Part shown: piece by piece, positions 9,527 to 62,596 of the stretch
How positions within the stretch are numbered: the stretch's first letter is position 1
How the letters are laid out: each line of letters begins with the position of its first letter
DNA from: Candidatus Magasanikiibacteriota bacterium
GTDB taxonomy: Bacteria; Patescibacteriota; Patescibacteriia; Magasanikbacterales; GWA2-37-8
DNA: 64,000 nucleotides
Direction of reading: 5' to 3'
NCBI GenBank assembly: GCA_026396515.1
Contig: JAPLWQ010000002.1
Location: 193,230-257,229, forward strand
Program-made: the position numbers and the translations under genes
The notes under the pieces: generated by a model
Told to the model about the DNA's origin: nothing
Database searches by the model: none
What the model saw: only the letters and a program-made list of their open reading frames with translations

Positions 9527-9576
9527 TCTTACCACTATAAATCATTTTCGGCATAAATACCCAAAATGATTTATAG

Positions 9577-9648
9577 AGCAGGTGAGCGGAATCGAACCGC
9601 CATCTTATCCTTGGCAAGGACATATACTAACCATTGTACTACACCTGC
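9577..9648 (-). tRNA. tRNA-Gly(GCC)
   Basis: Acceptor GCAGGTG/CACCTGC, anticodon loop TTGCCAA, T-arm GGCGG-TTCGATT-CCGCT. Confidence 0.85.
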
Positions 9649-12498: not shown

Positions 12499-12538
12499 CT
12501 TATACCCTGTAGGACATTCACAATGTTCACAAGTTCAC
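12499..12538 (+). repeat. TTCAC-triplet motif, copy A
   Basis: CTTATACCCTGTAGgacaTTCACAATGTTCACAAGTTCAC. Near-identical copies at 14563-14602 and 62556-62596 in the same orientation. Confidence 0.7.
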
Positions 12539-13397: not shown

Positions 13398-14480
13398 TTA
13401 AGGTCCTACCTTAGTTAAATATTCATGAAATTGACCGCTGGCTCCACCCAAACAAAATTCTAATTCATATGAATTTCCGCCCTTTAAAGGCCTATACGCA
13501 TATTGAAAATTGGTCGGGCAATTTCCGTCATTCGGTAAGGGAGTGCTGGGAATTTGTTGTAGATATACTACACCATCATTCGATAACTGTTTACCTATTT
13601 CTATTTTTTCCGGATACTTTCCATTATCTGTATAATACAGCTCAAGAGCAGTTTGTATCACTTTTATATCGCTAACTCTTTTGTGATCCCGGATTGCAGA
13701 TTCATCAATTACTACAGGTACTACGGGCTCTTTAGTTTGTATCGATTCAACCACAATGTCGGAATAAAATCTAAAAGTATTGTTTTTTTCTGCTCCCACT
13801 TTCCACGTTACATCATCGTATACAGGCTTACCATTTGATACTGGAATATTACACAATTTATTTATCTGAGTAGCGTAATCGGCATCAACCACAGGGATGC
13901 TCATACCTTTATCAATTGAAATCTCTACTAGAGTTTTATAATTTTTTTCTACATTAAAACCTGCGCCCTTAATATATTCATTAGCCTTTTTATGCAGTCT
14001 GTTACACTCATTAAAATCTATTTCTTTTATTCCATCGCAGCAACCATTATATTCAATATCGCAATGATCAGGATATTTTGCAGGCATGATATTGTCCGGT
14101 ATCTCATATTCATTCCCGGAGAAAATTATCTCCTTACTACCCATAAAATTTTTAATCTGGTTAATTTGCGATTGGCCAAGCTGAGTTATAAAATAAAATG
14201 TATTCCGCTCAGGATATGAAGGCATTTCTCTGAAAATTTTTCCATTCTGGCAAAAAATAAAGCGTTCTTCAGCTAATAACAACAACGGTTCTTTATCAGA
14301 GATTACGTATTTTTGTGGTGCGACGCAGTCAATTTCTTTGTTGTTCTCATCCACACAGACATTTAAATTATTGTATTCGGAGCTATTTAAGTCACTACGC
14401 CATTGAAAAAACTTAAATGTCCCAACAGAGGCAGCGATGAAAATAATTATCAAGATTACCGGCAATAATATTTTTTTCAT
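13398..14480 (-). CDS. Secreted Cys-rich protein with C-terminal pseudopilin (GspG-like) domain
   Basis: N-terminal signal/anchor helix but no G|FTLIE prepilin motif. C-terminus TALELYYTDNGKYPE...LSNDGVVYLQQIP...CPTNFQYAYRP resembles type II secretion/type IV pseudopilin globular domains. At least 12 Cys. Confidence 0.4.
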   Translation of the reverse strand: MKKILLPVILIIIFIAASVGTFKFFQWRSDLNSSEYNNLNVCVDENNKEIDCVAPQKYVISDKEPLLLLAEERFIFCQNGKIFREMPSYPERNTFYFITQLGQSQINQIKNFMGSKEIIFSGNEYEIPDNIMPAKYPDHCDIEYNGCCDGIKEIDFNECNRLHKKANEYIKGAGFNVEKNYKTLVEISIDKGMSIPVVDADYATQINKLCNIPVSNGKPVYDDVTWKVGAEKNNTFRFYSDIVVESIQTKEPVVPVVIDESAIRDHKRVSDIKVIQTALELYYTDNGKYPEKIEIGKQLSNDGVVYLQQIPSTPLPNDGNCPTNFQYAYRPLKGGNSYELEFCLGGASGQFHEYLTKVGP

Positions 14481-14562: not shown

Positions 14563-14602
14563 AGGCCGCTGTCTTATACCCTGTAGAACGTTCACAATGT
14601 TC
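14563..14602 (+). repeat. TTCAC-triplet motif, copy B
   Basis: CTTATACCCTGTAGaacgTTCACAATGTTCACAAGTTCAC. Directly abuts a 16-nt duplicate of the tRNA-Gly(TCC) 3' end (GAGCGGGCAACGGGAA, 14604-14620). Confidence 0.7.
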
Positions 14603-14615
14603 ACAAGTTCACCCG

Positions 14616-14746
14616 AGCGGGCAACGGGAAATCTCACGCGGCGCTACGCGCCTTTCACGAAAGGGCTTCCGCCCTCTCGTGAACTCTCCCCCACAATAGC
14701 GGGAAAACCGCCAAGCAGTTTTCCCAAACCCTTTCGGTTCGATTCC
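14616..14746 (+). repeat. tRNA-associated structured element, copy 3
   Basis: GGGAAATCTCAC...GGTTCGATTCCC termini. Three hairpins (GCGGCGC-TAC-GCGCC, CACGAAAGGGC-TTC-CGCCCTCTCGTG, GGGAAAAC-CGCCAAGCA-GTTTTCCC) with compensatory changes versus copies 1 and 2. Confidence 0.6.
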
Positions 14747-14794
14747 CGTCCGATATAATAAAATAATCCCACGGATTCGGGATTATTTTATTAG

Positions 14795-14866
14795 AGCGGG
14801 CAACGGGAATCGAACCCGTATCACCAGTTTGGAAAACTGGAATAATAGCCGTTATATTATGCCCGC
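14795..14866 (-). tRNA. tRNA-Gly(TCC)
   Basis: Acceptor GCGGGCA/TGCCCGC, anticodon loop TTTCCAA, T-arm ACGGG-TTCGATT-CCCGT, discriminator T. Confidence 0.85.
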
Positions 14867-16369: not shown

Positions 16370-17404
16370 TCAGGATGACAGCTGGTCGCCCACGGCCTGA
16401 AAAATCACCTCATTAATATCTTTCGCCCCGGTAAAAAGCATTATCATGCGATCAACGCCCAGAGCAATACCGCCTGCATTCGGAATACCGGATTCTAGGG
16501 CTGAGATAAAATCAGAATCAACCGGCCAAGTTTCTTTGCCCATTTGCGCACGTTTTTCTCTATCCGCTTCCAGTCGTTTTTTCTGTTCGACCGCATCAGT
16601 CAATTCGCCAAAGGCATTAGCCATCTCCAACCCGGCAATGTAAAGTTCAAACCGCTCGGCATAGCGCGGGTCATTTTTTGACAAGCGCGAAAGCGATGTC
16701 ATCTGCTCCGGATAGTCATAAATCATTATCGGTTTTTGCATCCCGAGTTTAGGTTCTATCTCATTTAAAAATATTTTGTAAAATAAATCTTCAAACGCCT
16801 CTTTTTCTTCTACAGCGTACCCGCGCGCCTTCACCAACTCAGCCATTTTTTCACTGGTCAGATAATCATTCAATTCAACATCCGAATATTTTTTCCATAC
16901 CTCGCGCATACTCAATCTCTCCCACTCACCAAAAATCGGCACAACATGATCTTTTGACTTTAGACTTTCAACTTTCAACCCGGTGGCCACATATTTAAAT
17001 AATCTCTCTGTGTCATCCATAATTTCCTCAAGTGTACCTGACGCACGGTACCATTCAATCATGGTAAACTCCGTATTATGATTTCCGCCAAACTGTTCGA
17101 AATCTCGAAAACATTTACAAATCTGAAATATTTTTTCATAACCGACGGCCAATAATTTTTTCATGGCAAACTCCGGCGATGTCTGCAGATAGAATTTGTT
17201 CACAATACCATTCGGATCATGAAACAAGACCGGGATCGGATTCAAATAAGGCTCCTGACCGGGCAGGCGCACGGCCACCGGTGTTTCCGCTTCCTGAAAA
17301 TTTTCAGACCAAAAAAACTCGCGTATCAGACGAGTTATCTCTAAACGCTTTTTAAATATTTCGTTTAGGCGCGGATTATTTTTTAAGTCAGACCATTTGG
17401 ACAT
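16370..17404 (-). CDS. epmA: EF-P (R)-beta-lysine ligase EpmA (PoxA/GenX, class II LysRS paralogue)
   Basis: 344 aa with FTMIEWY, RFELYIAGLEMANAFGELTD and GIALGVDRMIMLFTG class II synthetase motifs. Adjacent to efp. Confidence 0.8.
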   Translation of the reverse strand: MSKWSDLKNNPRLNEIFKKRLEITRLIREFFWSENFQEAETPVAVRLPGQEPYLNPIPVLFHDPNGIVNKFYLQTSPEFAMKKLLAVGYEKIFQICKCFRDFEQFGGNHNTEFTMIEWYRASGTLEEIMDDTERLFKYVATGLKVESLKSKDHVVPIFGEWERLSMREVWKKYSDVELNDYLTSEKMAELVKARGYAVEEKEAFEDLFYKIFLNEIEPKLGMQKPIMIYDYPEQMTSLSRLSKNDPRYAERFELYIAGLEMANAFGELTDAVEQKKRLEADREKRAQMGKETWPVDSDFISALESGIPNAGGIALGVDRMIMLFTGAKDINEVIFQAVGDQLSS

Positions 17405-18129: not shown

Positions 18130-18693
18130 TTAAATATTGATATTATCATCAGCTAAAATCTCGTCCAGTTTTTTATCAATCTCTTTCAGATCAAGCGTTT
18201 TAGCTTTGACCGGCACTTTCGGGAAAACAACTTTCTCCGCTTCCGCATCAACCGCCTCTTCTTTAGCCAAATCCGCTGTTTCAATCAATTGCTCTTGTAC
18301 CGGTGTTTCTTTAAAGTCCGATTCAACCTTATCTACAACAAATGTTCGCGCCTGCTCTTCCTGTTGCGGCATTTCGTTAAAATAGGTTATTTTTTGCGCG
18401 CCAATCATCGCTTTATTATAATGCGTAATAATAGCGCGGAGTAGACCGCGGCTTAATCTTAATTTTTCTTCAATCTTTTGTATATTTTCCGGCTCAGCAG
18501 AAAAAACAACTGTATAAAAATAGCCATAGCGCACCTGCTTAATCGGATACGCCAAACGATTTTTGCCAAGCACAGTCAAATCGGCTTCCTGGACAAATTC
18601 ATTAATTATTTCAACAACTTCTTTTGTTTTGACCTCCGCTTCTTTTTCATCAAGCGTTCCAGGCAAAACCAACAATAACTCGTATTTTCTCAT
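18130..18693 (-). CDS. rpsF: 30S ribosomal protein S6 with a long acidic C-terminal extension
   Basis: MRKYELLLVL...RLAYPIK N-terminal domain. 187 aa is longer than a typical S6 because of an E/D/K-rich tail. Confidence 0.85.
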   Translation of the reverse strand: MRKYELLLVLPGTLDEKEAEVKTKEVVEIINEFVQEADLTVLGKNRLAYPIKQVRYGYFYTVVFSAEPENIQKIEEKLRLSRGLLRAIITHYNKAMIGAQKITYFNEMPQQEEQARTFVVDKVESDFKETPVQEQLIETADLAKEEAVDAEAEKVVFPKVPVKAKTLDLKEIDKKLDEILADDNINI

Positions 18694-35853: not shown

Positions 35854-35877
35854 TTTGTGTACGCTAGCGTACACAAA
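35854..35877. promoter_or_regulatory. 24-bp perfect palindrome P1, copy a
   Basis: TTTGTGTACGCTAGCGTACACAAA is its own reverse complement. Copies at 36825-36848, 61047-61070 (1 mismatch) and 61160-61183. Confidence 0.6.
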
Positions 35878-35913
35878 TTTTCAATATATCGCATGCTATC
35901 CACAATTTATTCA

Positions 35914-36091: not shown

Positions 36092-36113
36092 AATTGTTTC
36101 ACGTGAAACAATT
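36092..36113. promoter_or_regulatory. 22-bp perfect palindrome P2, copy a
   Basis: AATTGTTTCACGTGAAACAATT with a CACGTG core. Identical copy at 36580-36601 and an 18-bp core copy at 36729-36746. Confidence 0.6.
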
Positions 36114-36579: not shown

Positions 36580-36601
36580 AATTGTTTCACGTGAAACAAT
36601 T
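36580..36601. promoter_or_regulatory. Palindrome P2, copy b
   Basis: AATTGTTTCACGTGAAACAATT. Confidence 0.6.
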
Positions 36602-36646
36602 CTTTGGGTAAATATGAGATTTTTGGCTAATTTCAGCCAAATATAG

Positions 36647-36718
36647 TGTCCTCGCCAGGAATCGAACCTGGATCCGAGCATTAGGAGTGCCCGGTTCTAT
36701 CCATTAAACTACGAGGAC
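36647..36718 (-). tRNA. tRNA-Arg(CCT)
   Basis: Acceptor GTCCTCG/CGAGGAC, D-stem GTTT/AGAC-type, anticodon loop CTCCTAA, T-arm CCAGG-TTCGATT-CCTGG. Confidence 0.8.
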
Positions 36719-36728
36719 CTGATAGAAG

Positions 36729-36746
36729 ATGTTTCACGTGAAACAT
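36729..36746. promoter_or_regulatory. Palindrome P2, copy c (18-bp core)
   Basis: ATGTTTCACGTGAAACAT, 10 bp from the tRNA-Arg 5' end. Confidence 0.55.
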
Positions 36747-36824: not shown

Positions 36825-36848
36825 TTTGTGTACGCTAGCGTACACAAA
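36825..36848. promoter_or_regulatory. Palindrome P1, copy b (upstream of rmuC)
   Basis: TTTGTGTACGCTAGCGTACACAAA, about 105 bp upstream of the rmuC start. Confidence 0.6.
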
Positions 36849-36953
36849 TCTACAAATGAGACCACGGCCAGTAATAAGCAGACAATTACATTCATGGCCT
36901 CTCCTTGTGGAAAACTTGCCGGGATGGTAATATCTTACTATAAAATACAAATT

Positions 36954-50814: not shown

Positions 50815-51033
50815 ATGCGACTAAATGTTAGGGTGATACCTCGATCTTCAAAAAATGAAATCATTGAACTTTCCGACGGCTCGATTAAAGCCAAACTGAC
50901 GGCTCCACCAGTGGAGGGCGAGGCAAATAAAAAACTAATTGAACTTATCGCAAAAAAATTTAATACTGCAAAAAGCCGTGTACAAATAGTGAGGGGAGCA
51001 AGGGGAAAAAATAAAATTATTGATTTACTCTGA
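50815..51033 (+). CDS. DUF167/YggU-family protein
   Basis: 72 aa, MRLNVRVIPRSSKNEI...KAKLTAPPVEGEANKKLIELIAKKF. Confidence 0.55.
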   Translation: MRLNVRVIPRSSKNEIIELSDGSIKAKLTAPPVEGEANKKLIELIAKKFNTAKSRVQIVRGARGKNKIIDLL

Positions 51034-51034
51034 T

Positions 51035-51427
51035 ATGCTTCAGCAAATAAACCGTTTGGCCAAAATTCGCGATTTTAATTTATTGGTTAAGCATGGCCGT
51101 TTTATAAATGGTTCTTTTTTATCTTTGAAAACGCTGCACTTAATTGACATAAAAAAATATTTTCCCTTAAAAGAAGACCCCGATAAATTTGAAGCGCAAC
51201 TTCGCATTGCTTTTGCCGTTAGCACTAAAATTTCTAAAAGCGCAGTAAAACGCAATCGTTTCCGCCGACAACTCCGCGAAGCTATCCGCCTACTTATTAA
51301 AGAAACCAAAATTGACAACGGTTGGTACCTGTTGTTTATTGCCAAGCCCGGCTGTCTGGATAATACTTATGAAGATATTAAAAATCAAGCAGTGGAACTA
51401 TTAAGCAGGACGAAGGCTTTAAAATAG
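51035..51427 (+). CDS. rnpA: Ribonuclease P protein component
   Basis: RnpA-like basic protein (KHGRF..., RNRFRRQLREAIR). Start at MLQQ directly after the DUF167 stop. Confidence 0.8.
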   Translation: MLQQINRLAKIRDFNLLVKHGRFINGSFLSLKTLHLIDIKKYFPLKEDPDKFEAQLRIAFAVSTKISKSAVKRNRFRRQLREAIRLLIKETKIDNGWYLLFIAKPGCLDNTYEDIKNQAVELLSRTKALK

Positions 51428-51428
51428 T

Positions 51429-51701
51429 ATGAAAAAATTGCCGGAATACATTAAATTTTTACTATATTTACCGCGAATGCCATTTCTAATGCTTATTAGA
51501 CTATACCAGAAGACATTCTCCCCTGACCACGGACCAGTAAAGCGTTTTTTTCCGCATGGATACTGCCAATTTTACCCCAGCTGCAGCGAATATGGCCACC
51601 AAGCCATAAAGAAATACGGCCTTCTAATAGGCATCCCCAAGGCAATCTGGAGGGTTCTGCGCTGTAACCCCTGGAGCGCCGGCGGGATTGATCTGCCATA
51701 A
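51429..51701 (+). CDS. yidD: Membrane protein insertion efficiency factor YidD
   Basis: LIRLYQKTFSP...GYCQFYPSCSEYGHQAIKKYG...RVLRCNPWSAGGIDLP, diagnostic of YidD. Confidence 0.85.
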   Translation: MKKLPEYIKFLLYLPRMPFLMLIRLYQKTFSPDHGPVKRFFPHGYCQFYPSCSEYGHQAIKKYGLLIGIPKAIWRVLRCNPWSAGGIDLP

Positions 51702-51711
51702 TTATTATACA

Positions 51712-51740
51712 AAAAACCCGCTATTTTAGCGGGTTTTTTA
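51712..51740. terminator. Bidirectional terminator between yidD and rpmH
   Basis: AAAAAACCCGCT-ATTTT-AGCGGGTTTTTT. Confidence 0.6.
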
Positions 51741-51783
51741 AATTTGGTCGGCAGAGATCAAAGCCATTCTACCGGGTTGACAA

Positions 51784-51960
51784 CTATCTGGTTTTCCGCG
51801 TACGCTTACCCTTGCGCTCATTTGAAACGGTTAATTTCTTTCTTCCCTTGGCACGTCGGCGACTTAATACGTTTCTACCGCCCTTCGTACTCATGCGCTT
51901 TCTAAAACCATGACTTTTGGCTCTTTTGCGCTTATTTGGTTGGTATGTTCTCTTCGGCAT
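51784..51960 (-). CDS. rpmH: 50S ribosomal protein L34
   Basis: [45 protein letters not shown], with a short basic C-terminal extension. Convergent with rnpA-yidD and divergent from dnaA. Confidence 0.8.
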
Positions 51961-52040
51961 ATGACTATATAATATTAGAATGCTATAAGCATAGCTCATT
52001 ACGCGAGTCAAGTCAAGGTTTGCGGTCGTTTAAGCGGTAA

Positions 52041-52049
52041 TTATCCACA
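52041..52049 (+). promoter_or_regulatory. Consensus DnaA box upstream of dnaA
   Basis: TTATCCACA, followed by a weaker TTTTCCACA at 52052-52060. Confidence 0.55.
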
Positions 52050-52140
52050 CCTTTTCCACATCTCCTGCACTTTGTAAGTTCGATTTTTTGGCTATGTTGT
52101 GATAAAATTCAGTAAATTAAAAAACTCGGATATACCCATT

Positions 52141-53538
52141 ATGAACAATAACGAGATCTGGCAGGCCGTGCTTGCCGAACTGGAACTATCAATATCAAAA
52201 GCCAATTTTATCACCTGGTTTAAAAATACAGGCATCGTTTCAGTTCAGGAAGGCCAAATATTGCTTTGCGTGCCCAACACATTCGCACGCGCCTGGTTTG
52301 AAAAAAAATATCACCATATGATTATCAAATCAATGGAGCGCATTATGGGCAAGCCTGTGCGCCGCCTTGAATATAAAATTGATAATATAAGAAATTTAGC
52401 TGAACAAGCGGCAAATGCATTCGATACCTTTACCACTGCCTACGCCGGAGGCGCGGAGACAGTTGACGCCTCACGGTCACTATCGAGACCCGCCAGCCAA
52501 AATGGGGGTTTTGCTCTCAATCCAAAATATTGTTTTGAAAATTTTGTCGTCGGTAGCGGATCAGAGCTCGCTTACGCGGCGGCCAAGGCGGTTTCTGAAC
52601 GGCCCGGCGAAGCATACAATCCACTATTTATTTATGGGGGCGTCGGTCTCGGAAAAACCCACCTCATTCAGGCCATTGGCACCCAAATATTAAAAAATAA
52701 TCCAAGCGCCGCTGTTTTATACGTAAGCGCTGAAAAATTTTCAAATGATTTTATACAATCGGTAAAAGAAGGCACGGCAAAAGAATTTCAAAATCATTAC
52801 CGAAACATTGATTTGCTTCTAATTGATGATATCCAATTCATTGCCGGCAAAGACCGCACGCAGGAATCTTTTTTTCACACCTTCAACGAACTCCACCAAC
52901 AGAACAAGCAAATTGTATTAACCTCCGACCGGCCGCCAAAAGCCATCCCCACATTAGAGGACAGATTAAAATCCAGATTTGAGTGGGGGATGATCGCCGA
53001 CATTACCATGCCTGATTTTGAAACACGCGTCGCTATTTTGCAGAAGAAATGTTCAGAAAAAACTTTTGACTTGCCTGAAAAAGTGCTTCACACCATCGCC
53101 GCTTCAGTCCAATCGAATATTCGCGAGCTTGAGGGGTCGCTTAATAAAATTATCGCCTACCACCAATTGAAGAATTTGACTCCCTCGGTTGAGTCAGTGA
53201 AATCATTACTTAGCTCAATCGAAACAGCCTCAATGAAGCAATCACTGGCCCCGCGCCAGATTACAGAGACTGTTTGCCAGTTTTATAGCATCCCATCGGA
53301 AAACATTTCCAATAAAAGCCGCGAAAAACGCGTTTCTTACCCACGGCAGATCATTATGTATCTCATGCGTGAGGAATTAAAAATGTCTTACCCTACAATT
53401 GGCGGCGAATTGGGCGGCCGCGATCACACTACGGCAATGCACGCCTATGAGAAAATTCGGCGCGACGTTGAAAATAGCCCTAAATTGAAACAAGAAATTG
53501 AATTAATTAAGCAACGACTATATATAAATAATGTTTAA
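52141..53538 (+). CDS. dnaA: Chromosomal replication initiator DnaA
   Basis: AAA+ Walker A GGVGLGKTHL, Walker B LLLIDDIQF, sensor motifs, and the C-terminal DNA-binding domain with a DnaA signature. Alternative upstream start at 52099. Confidence 0.9.
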   Translation: MNNNEIWQAVLAELELSISKANFITWFKNTGIVSVQEGQILLCVPNTFARAWFEKKYHHMIIKSMERIMGKPVRRLEYKIDNIRNLAEQAANAFDTFTTAYAGGAETVDASRSLSRPASQNGGFALNPKYCFENFVVGSGSELAYAAAKAVSERPGEAYNPLFIYGGVGLGKTHLIQAIGTQILKNNPSAAVLYVSAEKFSNDFIQSVKEGTAKEFQNHYRNIDLLLIDDIQFIAGKDRTQESFFHTFNELHQQNKQIVLTSDRPPKAIPTLEDRLKSRFEWGMIADITMPDFETRVAILQKKCSEKTFDLPEKVLHTIAASVQSNIRELEGSLNKIIAYHQLKNLTPSVESVKSLLSSIETASMKQSLAPRQITETVCQFYSIPSENISNKSREKRVSYPRQIIMYLMREELKMSYPTIGGELGGRDHTTAMHAYEKIRRDVENSPKLKQEIELIKQRLYINNV

Positions 53539-53800
53539 TTTTGTTTATATTGTGTGGATAAATCTGTTAAAACAGTGACTAGCGGCTCTTACTTATCCCC
53601 ACATTATAGTAGCTATACACACTCAGGCGAAGAGCAAAAAAATGTCCTCACCTTTTATACAGAGATTTTTACTTGACTATACACAGGTAACTAATCAATA
53701 ATACCCTTATCTGAGCGCAAAAAAGGAATTATCCCCTCTATTCACATCCCTTATTATTATGATTATCTAAATATATATAAAATAATACCAATTAATAAAT
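53539..53800. promoter_or_regulatory. Putative oriC (dnaA-dnaN intergenic)
   Basis: DnaA box TGTGGATAA at 53553-53561, near-box TTATCCCCA at 53593-53601, and an AT-rich stretch CTAAATATATATAAAATAATACCAATTAATAAAT at 53767-53800. Confidence 0.6.
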
Positions 53801-54925
53801 ATGAAGATCACATGTATAAAAGAAAATTTAGCGACAGCACTATCATTAGTAACAAATTTGGCTACAAAGAGCGTAAATTTGCCAATATTAAGTAATGTTT
53901 TAATTAAAGCCAGCGAACAAAAAGTGGAAATAATATCAACAAATCTGGAATTAGCAATTATTGTTTCCATCAGGGCTAAGGTGGAAGAACCCGGGTCGTT
54001 TACCGTACCAGCTAGAACCCTGACAGATTTTGTAAATTTGCTAGCTGATGAAAAAATTGATGTCGAATTGAAAGAAAATGAACTGGTTGTGTCGTGCGGA
54101 AAATCGGCGACTAAGATTAAGGGTATCCCGGCGGACGAATATCCCGTCATACCAGCAGTGGGCGAGGGTCAGGGTTTTTTGGTACCGGTGGAAGATATGA
54201 AAAAAGGCCTCTCACAAGTCAACCTGGCGGCCGCGCGCAACGACATCAGGCCGGAACTGTCCGGTGTATTGTTTGCCTTTAATCTGGAAAACAGCGGCCA
54301 GTTGGTTGTAGCGGCGACAGATAGTTATCGCCTGGCCGAGAAAAAGATAAAGCTCCTTCAGGGCAAGGAATCCTTTCGGGTTATTGTACCAGGCCGCACC
54401 TCACAGGAAATTGCTCATATTCTTTCTTCGTCCAGTGAATTGGAATCTGAAAAAAGCGTACGCATAATTCTAAGTGAAAATCAGATTGCGGTGAATTATA
54501 ACAGTGTGCAGATGATTTCACGTTTGGTGGAAGGGCAATATCCGGACTACACTCAAATTATTCCCAAAGATTTCAAAACATCGGCTGAGTTTTCTATCGC
54601 CAAAATGGTTAAAGAAATAAAAGCAGCGAGTCTATTTACAACGGTCGGAGTAAACGCGGTTGCTTTTGATATTCTGCCCGCTGAGGGAGAAATAAAAATT
54701 GCGTCAACTTCAACTCAGACAGGTGAATATCGCTCCGGGATGGAAGCGGAAATTAAAGGAGAAAAAAATGCTATTCTCTTAAATCACAGATATTTATTGG
54801 ACGGGTTAAATAGTATTAACGGAGACGTAGGGACGCTTAAAATAATTAATAGTGACAGTCCATGCGTCCTCATTGGAAAAAACGAGGAAAATTATTTGTA
54901 TATAGTCATGCCTATACGGCAGTAG
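53801..54925 (+). CDS. dnaN: DNA polymerase III beta sliding clamp
   Basis: 374 aa, three-domain clamp, N-terminus MKITCIKENLATALSLV. Confidence 0.9.
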   Translation: MKITCIKENLATALSLVTNLATKSVNLPILSNVLIKASEQKVEIISTNLELAIIVSIRAKVEEPGSFTVPARTLTDFVNLLADEKIDVELKENELVVSCGKSATKIKGIPADEYPVIPAVGEGQGFLVPVEDMKKGLSQVNLAAARNDIRPELSGVLFAFNLENSGQLVVAATDSYRLAEKKIKLLQGKESFRVIVPGRTSQEIAHILSSSSELESEKSVRIILSENQIAVNYNSVQMISRLVEGQYPDYTQIIPKDFKTSAEFSIAKMVKEIKAASLFTTVGVNAVAFDILPAEGEIKIASTSTQTGEYRSGMEAEIKGEKNAILLNHRYLLDGLNSINGDVGTLKIINSDSPCVLIGKNEENYLYIVMPIRQ

Positions 54926-61046: not shown

Positions 61047-61070
61047 TTTGTGTACACTAGTGTATACAAA
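61047..61070. promoter_or_regulatory. Palindrome P1, copy c
   Basis: TTTGTGTACACTAGTGTATACAAA, one mismatch from a perfect palindrome. Confidence 0.55.
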
Positions 61071-61159
61071 CATTATTTTAGCTATAATTAGGGCAAACTA
61101 TTAGGATTTGTACATAATTTATCCCCATATTCACAGAGTTATCCACAGACATATCCACT

Positions 61160-61183
61160 TTTGTATACACTAGCGTACACAAA
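61160..61183. promoter_or_regulatory. Palindrome P1, copy d
   Basis: TTTGTATACACTAGCGTACACAAA. 113 bp from copy c and about 120 bp upstream of the 61303 gene start. DnaA-box-like TTATCCACA at 61138-61146 is adjacent. Confidence 0.55.
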
Positions 61184-61302
61184 CTGATAGATTAAGTGAC
61201 ATTAAGTTCCTAAGCAGCCTGCGCACCCCGGGATAAATATTTTTTTTGTTAAATACCCGCATGCTTGCTCATTAATTGGATACGGAGTAGACTATACCGC
61301 AT

Positions 61303-62555: not shown

Positions 62556-62596
62556 CTTAATACCCTGTAGGTGGTTCACAATGTTCACTTGTTCAC
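62556..62596 (+). repeat. TTCAC-triplet motif, copy C
   Basis: CTTAATACCCTGTAGgtggTTCACAATGTTCACTTGTTCAC. Confidence 0.65.

Follow-up and report, generated by a model that had tools for sequence, protein, structure and literature searches.

Patescibacteria apparently carry, at the 3′ ends of their tRNA genes, an undescribed family of noncoding cassettes of ~130-230 bp; full-text literature searches did not find a description of such an element. In the window analyzed here (the whole 64 kb stretch of DNA), cassettes are present at three of eight tRNAs, namely tRNA-Leu(TAA), tRNA-Gly(GCC), and tRNA-Gly(TCC) (copies 1, 2, and 3, respectively; Table 1). On balance, we lean toward a family of mobile cassettes that enter by recombination within the tRNA 3′ segment. 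A unit is made up of an AT-rich hairpin, an inverted tRNA copy that runs from G53 to the 3′ end, a conserved structured core, and a direct tRNA copy that starts at about nt 57 and likewise reaches the 3′ end.

The case is clearest at tRNA-Gly(TCC), where the 16-mer GAGCGGGCAACGGGAA occurs exactly twice on the same strand of the 64 kb window (14615-14630 and 14794-14809, 179 bp from start to start), against a chance expectation of ~0.05 matches even with up to two mismatches; two occurrences were reached in 0 of 100 shuffles. The direct duplication of the tRNA 3′ end claimed in a preliminary description of this DNA is therefore real and, as also claimed, brackets a hairpin plus the element; its repeats stand, while the coordinates first assigned to them (14604-14620 and 14796-14811) were off by ~11 and 2 nt. 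The proximal repeat, the last 16 nt of the tRNA, takes in nt 59-60 of the T-loop, the 3′ strands of the T-stem and the acceptor stem, the discriminator, and a single base beyond it. In the direction of the tRNA, copy 3 runs from the tRNA through the AT-rich hairpin, an inverted arm, a core of ~100 nt, and the octamer GTGAGATT to the direct copy. The inverted arm, which abuts the hairpin, is a reversed copy of tRNA-Gly(TCC) from the T-loop to the 3′ end: it covers G53, the T-loop, and the T-stem 3′ strand and runs into the acceptor strand, and its reverse complement equals the tRNA exactly over 13 nt (GTTCGATTCCCGT). Inverted 8-mer matches are found downstream of the tRNA. Beyond the core, whose hairpins H1, H2, and H3 surround a purine-rich four-way junction, GTGAGATT is what remains, in mutated form, of a T-loop and pairs with GAATCGAAC in the 5′ arm via tandem G·A. 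For the core, the minimum free energy is −70.3 kcal/mol (z = −4.6), and the identity to a tRNA-Asn copy (locus L013) is 75%. An assembly artefact is excluded by two independent Logan assemblies that agree at 100% identity over 16.9 kb and by the recurrence of this architecture in many unrelated MAGs. An exact-protein look-up for strain variants returned the same genome alone, 100% identical.

Table 1. Coordinates of the cassettes and their parts in the 64 kb window
Feature	Position	Strand	Evidence
tRNA-Gly(TCC), host gene of copy 3	14794..14866	-	ARAGORN; Rfam tRNA model, 63.6 bits
Copy 3, AT-rich hairpin, terminator-like in both directions, AATAAAATAATCCC / GGGATTATTTTATT, 8-nt loop	14757..14792	-	Sequence
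Copy 3, 5′ arm, inverted tRNA copy ATATCGGACGGGAATCGAAC	14737..14756	-	Reverse complement versus tRNA
Copy 3, structured core, subtype A2	14638..14736	-	Covariance model 14624-14750, 75.5 bits, E = 7e-17
Copy 3, 3′ arm, GTGAGATT then direct copy TCCCGTTGCCCGCTC of tRNA 3′ end	14615..14637	-	16-mer search, arm analysis
Copy 2, between tRNA-Gly(GCC) (9576-9648) and tRNA-Met (9325-9398)	9413..9575	-	Covariance model 9417-9530, 125.7 bits
Copy 2, hairpin	9537-9574		
Copy 2, inverted arm	9517-9536		
Copy 2, core	9433-9516		
Copy 2, GTGAGATT	9423-9430		
Copy 2, decayed direct copy CCCTCACTTG	9413-9422		
Copy 1, behind tRNA-Leu(TAA) (1802-1884)	1886..2053	+	Covariance model 1932-2047, 129.7 bits; arm analysis
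Copy 1, hairpin	1886-1919		
Copy 1, inverted arm	1925-1945		
Copy 1, core	1946-2033		
Copy 1, GTGAGATT	2034-2041		
Copy 1, direct copy CTCCCCGAACAA	2042-2053		
Truncated older units distal to copy 1	2054..2185	+	Repeat family D3; covariance model 2077-2178, 44.4 bits

The arms of the two further copies match their respective tRNAs. Compared by hand, the copy 1 inverted arm agrees with the reverse-complemented tRNA 3′ end at 19 of 21 nt, with 16 nt as the longest exact run; that the tRNA-Leu copy also has tRNA-specific arms had been overlooked. The looser match CAAGTGAGGGAATC previously noted at copy 2 is indeed the equivalent arm for tRNA-Gly(GCC), at 9413-9426, one base away from the position first given. 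Because each copy bears the sequence of its own host tRNA, the repeats are true tRNA duplications rather than terminal inverted repeats that happen to resemble T-arms. Distal to copy 1 lie two more core 3′ fragments, each with GTGAGATT and a tRNA-Leu-like 3′ end (CTCCTCGAAC and CTCCCCGGA). The insert is miniature and noncoding, as had been proposed; the open reading frames over the elements (9318-9623 and 1835-2053) are unconserved and extend across tRNAs, and protein coding was rejected.

A covariance model recovered 20 more copies on contigs from Magasanikbacteria and other Patescibacteria, at 12 tRNA species. All 23 matches at E < 1e-8 are found immediately downstream (3′) of a tRNA or of a 3′ fragment of one, in the tRNA sense. 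Hosts of the type A core are tRNA-Leu(TAA), Gly(GCC), Gly(TCC), Ile, Val(GAC), Val(TAC), Glu(TTC), Glu(CTC), Asn, Arg(GCG), Arg(TCG), and Met, with a weak type A match behind tRNA-Pro. Every copy found elsewhere, like the three in the window, carries arms of its own host tRNA sequence, and these track T-loop variants (TTCAAGT with ACTTGAAC...AAGT; TTCGACT with AGTCGAAC); only the T-loop-derived inner 8-9 nt are common to the arms, the outer arms varying with the host tRNA. Direct repeats in the other copies measure 6-41 nt, always start in the T-loop, and sometimes include the whole downstream hairpin. Nearly all copies have such a hairpin separating the element from the tRNA; empty sites (e.g., L043 and L044) lack it. 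The tRNA-Val copy of L005 has an arm helix of 9 bp and lacks a hairpin, indicating that neither arm-helix length nor the hairpin is obligatory. Two other core types, B and C, share the architecture of type A. Cores of subtype A1 are 82-95% identical across MAGs, and the same core types stand behind many tRNAs in genomes that are ~70% identical in flanking DNA. The window core at tRNA-Gly(GCC) shares 66% identity with its counterpart at this site in L042, versus 91% with the tRNA-Ile copy of L005; core identity does not track site orthology.

Comparison of orthologous sites, at which gain and precise loss look alike in patterns of presence and absence, revealed empty and filled alleles, bearing out the check for empty sites that had been recommended. 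The spacer between tRNA-Gly(GCC) and tRNA-Met is 12-36 nt and empty at seven loci from six relatives (L043, L044, L045, L047, L048, L049, and L050), and 177-248 nt and filled in the window, L042, and L052 only; the element is also missing at tRNA-Gly(TCC) in L043 and at tRNA-Leu in L050. Three or four tRNA sites distinguish the sister genomes represented by L042 and L043, which share 85% identity over 18 kb. At filled sites, the original flank comes after the distal copy: in L042, the sequence after the distal copy is TGGCAAAA, a match to the spacer TGGCTAAA of its sister L043, where the site is empty. Distal copies in the window, L042, and L052 miss the same G (GATTCC-CTCAC), and after this shared deletion those of L042 and L052 take their own acceptor variants (CACCCGC versus CACCTGC). 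These chimeras of donor and recipient, in which a shared odd deletion precedes the local tRNA variant, indicate recombination inside the tRNA 3′ segment, and the attL/attR logic of the preliminary description holds to that extent. In L030, the arms match each other (GAGAGG/CCTCTC) and not the local tRNA-Pro. Across syntenic relatives, tRNA-Leu(TAA) is found with core types A, B, and C, with an empty site, and with a remnant, and distal units in arrays are truncated, suggesting that new units enter beside the tRNA.

A nonmobile origin could be sought in local fold-back (tandem-inversion) duplication, with replication template switching at the terminator and T-arm hairpins around a vertically inherited host small-RNA gene, which would leave the tRNA 3′ end in a direct-inverted-direct triplication. 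Since the 3′ arm of the hairpin runs straight into the inverted arm, a single long interrupted palindrome extends from the tRNA 3′ end through the hairpin to the inverted copy, and solo inverted T-loop copies (GGACTTGAAC) without a core follow the tRNA-Met terminator in L043 and L045; both observations would suit such an origin. It is nevertheless improbable given the recurrence of core types behind many tRNAs in diverged (~70% identical) surroundings, the three unrelated core types with a single architecture, the differences between 85%-identical sisters, and the donor-type deletion common to distal copies across lineages. Under the preferred reading of a mobile cassette, a chromosomal tRNA 3′ segment would recombine with the element-borne copy and the tRNA would be regenerated; the direct repeat would therefore represent the crossover or homology segment rather than a staggered-cut target duplication. 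The cassette would spread mainly from a tRNA gene of one lineage to its equivalent in another, presumably following uptake of DNA, and would be lost when the repeats recombine with each other. Such exchange among equivalent tRNAs cannot account for one core type with matching inverted and direct arms at 12 tRNA species.

Islands and prophages that target tRNAs at the T-loop sublocation by means of tyrosine integrases regenerate the tRNA, leave a T-loop-to-3′-end repeat, and accrete in tandem, and the repeat at copy 3 fits the established geometry of this T-loop class. Accordingly, the cassettes might be nonautonomous miniature integrative elements, mobilized as double-stranded circles by a tyrosine or serine integrase in trans, with the T-loop-to-3′-end block of the tRNA as attP. 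The direct repeat from the T-loop to just beyond the discriminator beside an intact tRNA, the empty-site alleles in relatives, the chimeric distal copies, and the tandem accretion with new units apparently entering beside the tRNA are all shared with such elements. The cassettes differ in being only ~150-200 bp and noncoding, in having one core type behind 12 tRNA species with different 3′ ends rather than the one-tRNA specificity of an element lineage, and in possessing an extra inverted att copy and a covarying RNA core, which have no role in the classical scheme. Furthermore, the distal T-loop is truncated or mutated (GTGAGATT), leaving no complete core site. No tyrosine or serine integrase or other recombinase, resolvase, transposase, nuclease, or reverse transcriptase was seen in the window ORFs scanned or covered by stored annotation, nor any integrase, resolvase, or transposase domain in precomputed Pfam lists for ~170 kb of related loci. 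Taken together, these observations make the classical route unlikely and lend no support to the integrase in trans that had been postulated. What stands of the earlier picture of a mobile miniature element is its mobility and noncoding nature; it had missed the inverted arm and the strongly covarying core and had not counted the hairpin toward the insert, three features foreign to the classical scheme.

The core folds as a four-way junction in which 24 of 29 pairs are changed on both sides (compensatory), as counted in an alignment fitted by the covariance model, which leans toward the modeled structure. Paired cells amount to 95.7%, compared to 80.1% in shuffles; the observed values were reached in 0 of 500 shuffles, and slid controls collapse. 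On the tRNA-sense strand, G·U outnumbers A·C by 24 to 6, and tandem G·A pairs and GNRA-type loops are found; relative to shuffles, the two strands fold about equally (z = −4.6 and −4.7). Covariation extends over the core and the inner part of the arm helix and follows the pattern of an RNA read in the tRNA sense. In all copies examined, the two arms pair, with duplex energies between −4.5 and −25 kcal/mol (−11 to −25 in complete units), and form a helix that reaches the acceptor region in the tRNA-Leu copy of the window, L007, and L015 and is short or degenerate in the L005 tRNA-Val copy and L047. This helix, P1, formed by the inverted and direct arms, would close the four-way-junction RNA and mask the spare tRNA 3′ half in a transcript; were there a single-stranded intermediate, this pairing would re-create the attachment site within it as a duplex.

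At the gathering threshold, Rfam models matched nothing but tRNAs in the window, and in 146 kb of related loci they matched tRNAs and one unrelated DUF3800-IX, leaving type B and C cores unmatched; with an E-value threshold, copies 2 and 3 gave no credible sub-threshold matches. Among known RNAs, the cassette recalls tRNA-like molecules (the tmRNA domain, viral structures, and minihelices) in that the 3′ strand of its closing helix, identical to the tRNA, consists of T-stem, acceptor, and discriminator, and in that its four-way junction is cloverleaf-like in topology. It differs in having base-paired T-loop nucleotides, an acceptor part that is often degenerate or missing, and no anticodon-like feature, and the Rfam tRNA, tmRNA, and tRNA-like-structure models do not score on it.

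Strong purifying and compensatory selection on the helices, conserved purine-rich junctions, and the high identity of A1 cores across MAGs would also be expected of a tRNA-linked RNA that benefits the host, as a processing or termination insulator or a regulatory RNA, with cores homogenized by gene conversion and occasionally lost. The hairpin of copy 2 lacks a U-tract and tRNA-Met lies downstream, so this copy is probably cotranscribed; the element would then be part of a tRNA operon transcript at the Gly-to-Met site, which would suit an RNA of this kind. Absence from most orthologous sites in relatives, the interchangeability of three nonhomologous cores at a single site, the occurrence of truncated and nested copies, and occupancy of only three of eight window tRNAs render host benefit a doubtful explanation, of low probability.

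Reverse transcription offers another route by which tRNA sequence might be captured, as in the Varkud and Mauriceville retroplasmids of Neurospora, which form hybrid cDNAs templated on tRNA. An RNA replicon whose end mimics the acceptor/T minihelix might, after RNase P and RNase Z processing and CCA addition, be reverse transcribed into hybrid cDNAs templated on tRNA or pre-tRNA, which would then recombine at tRNA genes. Snap-back cDNA synthesis on a tRNA would yield both arm orientations, the arm helix does reproduce the continuous 3′ strand of the acceptor/T stack, and reverse transcriptases occur in relatives (L041 carries a DGR). Yet direct copies in L022, L025, and the tRNA-Met copy of L042 continue into the genomic hairpin and not into CCA, showing that the template was DNA or a primary transcript rather than mature tRNA; no reverse transcriptase is present among the window ORFs examined, and the acceptor part of the helix is missing or degenerate in several copies (L005 tRNA-Val and L047). 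An origin as a retroelement or RNA replicon is thus very unlikely.

Small noncoding multicopy elements are also familiar as MITEs and REPINs, and the cassettes resemble these in their inverted-repeat ends, strong hairpin potential, and intergenic position near terminators. In contrast to the constant terminal inverted repeats derived from a parent element, however, the terminal repeats of the cassettes copy the neighboring tRNA; a short target duplication of fixed length is lacking, specificity for tRNA 3′ ends is strict, and neither a MITE parent transposase nor a REPIN RAYT gene was found in the examined sequences. Since the core starts right after GAAC, IS91/Helitron-type targeting of GAAC/GTTC was considered; it was rejected together with IS200/IS605 PATEs and REP/RAYT, given the locus-specific arms and the lack of any HUH gene in the examined sequences.

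A further parallel is offered by integron attC cassettes and the attP(+) of CTX-phi/IMEX, imperfect palindromes whose folded stem rebuilds a duplex recombination site. The product predicted for such a folded site (site, linker, inverted arm, loop, site) corresponds to the order observed here (tRNA 3′ end, hairpin, inverted arm, core, direct copy), the palindrome arms do pair, and arrays occur in which new units apparently lie beside the primary site. The cassettes differ in lacking an ORF and, in the examined sequences, an IntI/Xer-type site or gene; their stem is tRNA-derived and locus-specific, their "loop" is a conserved four-way-junction RNA, and the attC motifs RYYYAAC/GTTRRRY have no more than a loose counterpart in ATCGAAC/GTTCGAT.

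Among proteins, the sole recurrent partner at these sites is a small GIY-YIG protein of the UPF0213 type, which may supply DNA breaks at the T-loop. Its genes lie directly 3′ of a tRNA or tRNA 3′ fragment at all five distinct loci seen in relatives (two from loci already fetched and three sampled by homology), and at two of the five they are nested in type A units. The proteins, of 85-99 aa, contain the catalytic domain only, without a DNA-binding domain; this is not a classical homing endonuclease, and a link to the element is suggested by these five loci. T-even phages encode in their tRNA region the free-standing GIY-YIG homing endonuclease SegB, whose cut motif is RAWTSGAAC, an antisense T-loop, and whose breaks drive recombination-dependent tandem amplification of tRNA segments (PMC13096335). 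The two systems are alike in having a GIY-YIG gene beside tRNA genes and in the cut motif, which is identical to GAATCGAAC of the element 5′ arm; they differ in that the patescibacterial proteins are predicted nucleases consisting of the catalytic domain, and in that the elements are noncoding and the window contains no GIY-YIG gene. In a model of nuclease-driven spread, GTTCGATTC/GAATCGAAC would be the candidate cut site.

These features permit a bolder reading, offered tentatively as a possibility that we do not expect to be the likelier one: a new class of mobile element, a single-stranded dumbbell (DNA or RNA) of ~190 nt whose stem is its own attachment site and which is driven in trans by GIY-YIG proteins. 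The hairpin would form one end and the structured core the other, with the stem being a folded duplex copy of the host tRNA 3′ end; minimal GIY-YIG nucleases from the same sites would cut T-loop DNA. If the arms were re-templated on the target tRNA, the element could colonize any tRNA.

At ~1 Mb, the genomes of Patescibacteria leave little space for selfish DNA, yet several tRNA genes in a genome are occupied by fast-turning-over noncoding cassettes of at least three structural types. If the family of mobile cassettes favored here is real, tRNA 3′ ends in a huge uncultured radiation would be a dedicated landing pad for an undescribed kind of mobile element that needs no gene of its own, spares the essential tRNA, and bears a conserved, strongly covarying RNA. 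The cores provide three new candidate structured-RNA families, a concrete possible role is suggested for the uncharacterized UPF0213 GIY-YIG proteins, and arms templated on the tRNA would be a natural case of a recombination site copied from its target. Partial tRNA copies and long palindromes beside tRNAs can also mislead tRNA annotation, island prediction, and assembly in CPR MAGs.

Several other resemblances were considered and set aside. An RNase P-like stretch in the H1/H2 junction (GAGGAAAGUCC) resembles a P4 strand, but no RNase P model scored with E up to 10 and the likeness is regarded as coincidence; a hammerhead-like CUGANGA is unconserved among copies. Group I introns of Patescibacteria tRNAs are situated in the anticodon loop at position 35/36 (PMC13011429) and are unrelated to the cassette. 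A phage origin was dismissed after two scans of viral contigs, which gave one chance match, without a covariance-model match, and nothing more. A metagenome scan with the over-strict end GYGTGAGATT recovered only 4 true loci. Some matches to the family are labeled "uncultured Gammaproteobacteria."

The element behind tRNA-Gly(TCC), copy 3 of the window, is a non-coding unit of variable presence that is located exactly at tRNA 3′ ends, where an inverted and a direct arm, both derived from the tRNA, flank a covarying RNA core. The window contains exactly two occurrences of the 16-mer GAGCGGGCAACGGGAA, against a chance expectation of ~0.05 matches even with two mismatches allowed; the preliminary description had reported this duplication of the tRNA 3′ end, and the repeat was confirmed, with its coordinates corrected by about 11 and 2 nt. 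This organism was assembled twice independently, with 100% identity across 16.9 kb, so the arrangement is not an assembly artefact. In the tRNA sense, the tRNA 3′ end (...GGGTTCGATTCCCGTTGCCCGCTC) is followed by an AT-rich hairpin and an inverted arm, ATATCGGACGGGAATCGAAC, the reverse complement of the tRNA from G53 through T-loop and T-stem to the acceptor strand. A core of ~100 nt with three hairpins comes next, then a 3′ arm consisting of GTGAGATT and the direct copy TCCCGTTGCCCGCTC. The flank beyond is a promoter-like 40-nt repeat, also present at 12499 and 62557, which on the minus strand reads GTGAAC-TT-GTGAAC-ATT-GTGAA..CCTACAGGGTATAAG (three GTGAAC boxes and a -10-like TATAAG) and looks like a common promoter or operator. 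Its middle copy adjoins the distal arm of copy 3, upstream of ORF 13398-14480; that at 12499 is a putative promoter of a short transcript with a bidirectional terminator at its end.

Coordinates of elements, associated genes and neighbouring repeats (L numbers, loci fetched from other contigs or relatives)
Feature	Locus	Coordinates	Strand	Context
tRNA-Gly(TCC)	window	14794-14866	minus	ARAGORN and Rfam
16-mer repeat	window	14615-14630; 14794-14809		
AT-rich hairpin, copy 3	window	14757-14792		after tRNA-Gly(TCC), tRNA sense
Inverted arm, copy 3	window	14737-14756		after AT-rich hairpin, tRNA sense
40-nt repeat	window	12499-12538; 14573-14612; 62557-62596		
Copy 1	window	1886-2053		behind tRNA-Leu(TAA)
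Copy 2	window	9413-9575		between tRNA-Gly(GCC) and tRNA-Met
rnpA, dnaA, dnaN	window	51020-54925		
GIY-YIG gene	L013	4787-5086		inside type A unit behind tRNA-Asn
GIY-YIG gene	L050	17211-17468		between two tRNA-Met direct copies; core 3′ fragment next
GIY-YIG gene	L052	2501-2767		start exactly at tRNA-Met 3′ end
GIY-YIG gene	L055	2501-2758		start exactly at tRNA-Ser 3′ end
GIY-YIG gene	L053	2501-2764		behind tRNA-Ser-like 3′ fragment
Diversity-generating retroelement	L041	12082-13536		between ruvB and spoIID
GGACTcgttggccgttcgaccaGAAC and terminator	window	9250-9324	minus	downstream of tRNA-Met
Solo inverted T-loop copies	L043	~18440-18470		directly after tRNA-Met terminator
Solo inverted T-loop copies	L045	~16990-17000		directly after tRNA-Met terminator
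Palindrome TGTTTCACGTGAAACA	window	36095-36110; 36583-36598; 36730-36745		two copies bracket tRNA-Arg(CCT), 36646-36718
Palindromic repeat TTTGTGTACGCTAGCGTACACAAA	window	35854-35884; 36825-36855; 61047-61077; 61160-61190		near tRNA-Ala(CGC), near tRNA-Arg(CCT) and at ~61 kb

In each of the three window copies, the inverted and direct arms match their own host tRNA. Compared by hand, the tRNA-Leu inverted arm matches at 19 of 21 nt, with an exact run of at most 16 nt, and older, truncated units continue beyond copy 1 to about 2185. No such arms were found at the other five window tRNAs. A covariance model of the type A core, the type of all three copies, gave 23 matches with E better than 1e-8 in the window and fetched loci, every one directly 3′ of a tRNA or tRNA 3′ fragment and in the tRNA sense. 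Type A matches lie behind 12 tRNA species, with a further weak match behind tRNA-Pro, and arm sequences track host T-loop variants: ACTTGAAC...AAGT at tRNA-Met (TTCAAGT), GAGTTGAAC...GTTCAACT at tRNA-Val (TTCAACT), where the exact repeat reaches 24 nt (25 with one mismatch) and includes CCA, and inverted arm AGTCGAAC at a tRNA-Gly(TCC) variant (TTCGACT) in L042. Behind tRNA-Leu, tRNA-Met and a tRNA-Glu fragment, the same architecture houses two further core types: type B starts with GGCGGAGCG and contains GCCGGTGGC, and type C starts with GGGCAGAAAT and spans ~190 nt. None of the three cores has a match in Rfam. By its RuvB homologues, the window belongs to Candidatus Magasanikbacteria (Patescibacteria). 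A pattern scan of one genome per species returned 28 matches, including 10 true elements on nine contigs, all in Patescibacteria-type MAGs (some of them bear an unconfirmed "Gammaproteobacteria" label), and a metagenome scan added four loci.

Conserved synteny around RuvB allows a comparison of orthologous tRNA sites. The spacer between tRNA-Gly(GCC) and tRNA-Met is 12-36 nt in seven loci (L043, L044, L045, L047, L048, L049 and L050), of which L044 and L045 are mutually 100% identical and L047 and L048 apparently represent one organism; among the loci compared, only the window, L042 and L052 have it filled by a unit. At tRNA-Leu(TAA), type A is found in the window and L031, type B in L041 and L044/L045, and type C in L042, L043 and L047, while L049 retains a tiny remnant and L050 is empty. 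L042 and L043, despite 85% identity over 18 kb (every other pair, ~70%), differ at Gly(GCC), Gly(TCC), Met and Leu. A reading as a host-beneficial RNA fits some of the data and conflicts with others. In arrays, intact units are tRNA-proximal and truncated ones distal. Core similarity does not track site orthology: the Gly(GCC) copies of the window and L042 have cores 66% identical, and the window Gly(GCC) core is 91% identical to an Ile copy in L005.

Distal copies are chimeric. In L042 the distal copy runs into TGGCAAAA, the spacer directly after the tRNA in empty L043 (TGGCTAAA). The distal copy has the same oddity at all three filled Gly(GCC) sites, a missing G (GATTCC-CTCAC), after which L042 and L052 continue with the local acceptor variant, CACCCGC or CACCTGC; in L030 the arms match each other (GAGAGG/CCTCTC) and not the local tRNA-Pro. 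Such chimeras are the expected trace of a crossover inside the tRNA 3′ segment between incoming element and chromosome. A duplication that arose purely locally, by fold-back around a small RNA of the host, likewise explains some of the data and conflicts with others. The interpretation in the preliminary description is partly upheld: the element is mobile, miniature, non-coding and tRNA-regenerating, but no evidence for an integrase was obtained, and the description had missed the inverted arm and the RNA structure.

RNAalifold and model-based alignment indicated that the two arms pair as a closing helix, P1, whose inner part (GAAUCGAAC/GUGAGAUUC) contains tandem G.A pairs and which encloses a junction where conserved purine-rich strands lie between three hairpins. 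Across 25 distinct sequences, in an alignment fitted to the covariance model and so biased toward the modelled structure, 95.7% of cells were paired versus 80.1% in shuffles, and 24 of 29 pairs changed on both sides; none of 500 shuffles reached these values, and sliding the partner columns lowered pairing to 26-53%. Individual compensatory changes are independent of model fitting: GAGAAAAC/GUUUUCUC becomes GUGAAAAC/GUUUUCAC, and CACGAAAACC becomes CACGGGAACC or UUGAGAAACC with the partner strand changed to match. On the tRNA-sense strand G.U outnumbers A.C by 24 to 6, and the tandem G.A pairs of hairpin H3 are present on this strand only. Copy 3 has a predicted fold of -70.3 kcal/mol (z = -4.6); the opposite strand reaches -56.1 kcal/mol with a similar z-score.

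The integrase that had been proposed to act in trans was not found among the window ORFs examined or in the related loci. Window ORFs covered by a scan or by stored annotation have ordinary chromosomal functions and show no integrase, transposase, reverse transcriptase or GIY-YIG domain; the rnpA-dnaA-dnaN cluster among them indicates that the window spans the replication-origin neighbourhood, and rnpA, encoding the RNase P protein, implies that RNase P is of the conventional, RNA-based kind. Related loci likewise show no integrase, transposase or reverse transcriptase in their precomputed Pfam lists, except for one diversity-generating retroelement (reverse transcriptase plus bAvd) in L041, the closest relative found (RuvB 88% identical), at a position where the window has none. 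Movement by a classical integrase and a reverse-transcriptase-based route each fit some of the observations, although each is contradicted by others. The element was not found on the phage contigs scanned.

The sole recurrent protein at element sites is a small GIY-YIG gene product (85-99 aa, UPF0213 type), whose gene lies directly 3′ of a tRNA or tRNA 3′ fragment in all five distinct loci seen; chance adjacency is ~1% per locus by our estimate from ~45 tRNAs per Mb. Each gene is preceded by a CACGTA...TACGTG hairpin beginning at the tRNA end, and many homologues occur on very short contigs, as with repeated or mobile DNA. SegB, a GIY-YIG enzyme of phage, cleaves tRNA genes at the antisense T-loop motif RAWTSGAAC and drives a tandem amplification that depends on recombination (PMC13096335). 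GAATCGAAC in the element 5′ arm fits this motif, which is destroyed in the 3′ arm (GTGAGATT). By analogy, the SegB parallel offers a lead to how the element might be mobilised.

Entry would occur by recombination within the tRNA 3′ segment, so that the direct repeat would be the crossover or homology block; the element could then spread between equivalent tRNAs of different lineages and be lost through the direct repeats. Arm pairing may close the element RNA and mask the spare tRNA 3′ half, and in a single-stranded intermediate it would rebuild the attachment site. Single-strand integration of the CTX-phi/attC type yields the order site, linker, inverted arm, loop, site. The element shows exactly this expected arrangement, with tRNA end, hairpin, inverted arm, core and direct copy in succession. 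We class the element with those that integrate at tRNA sites, as a novel variant, and there is a real chance that it constitutes a new class; no prior description was found in the literature searches or Rfam.

Several further features accompany the tRNA sites. In the window (1802-2391) the tRNA-Leu array directly adjoins ruvB, whereas nrdG and nrdD intervene between tRNA-Leu(TAA) and ruvB in all relatives (L041-L050), so the array coincides with the endpoint of a rearrangement or deletion. Downstream of the window tRNA-Met, GGACTcgttggccgttcgaccaGAAC looks like an interrupted form of the inverted T-loop copy that reads GGACTTGAAC in relatives, and the terminator after it has a 5′ arm, GCCCCGCA, that reproduces the acceptor 3′ strand of tRNA-Met; this sequence may be a decayed element remnant. 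The solo inverted T-loop copies in L043 and L045 (GGACTTGAAC, GGACTTAAAT), which have neither core nor direct copy, could be traces that lost elements left behind, or else precursors from which new ones arise. The repeat TTTGTGTACGCTAGCGTACACAAA, with four good copies, may be a regulator binding site. TGTTTCACGTGAAACA is a perfect palindrome, and CACGTG-centred hairpins also stand at the start of GIY-YIG cassettes behind tRNAs in relatives.
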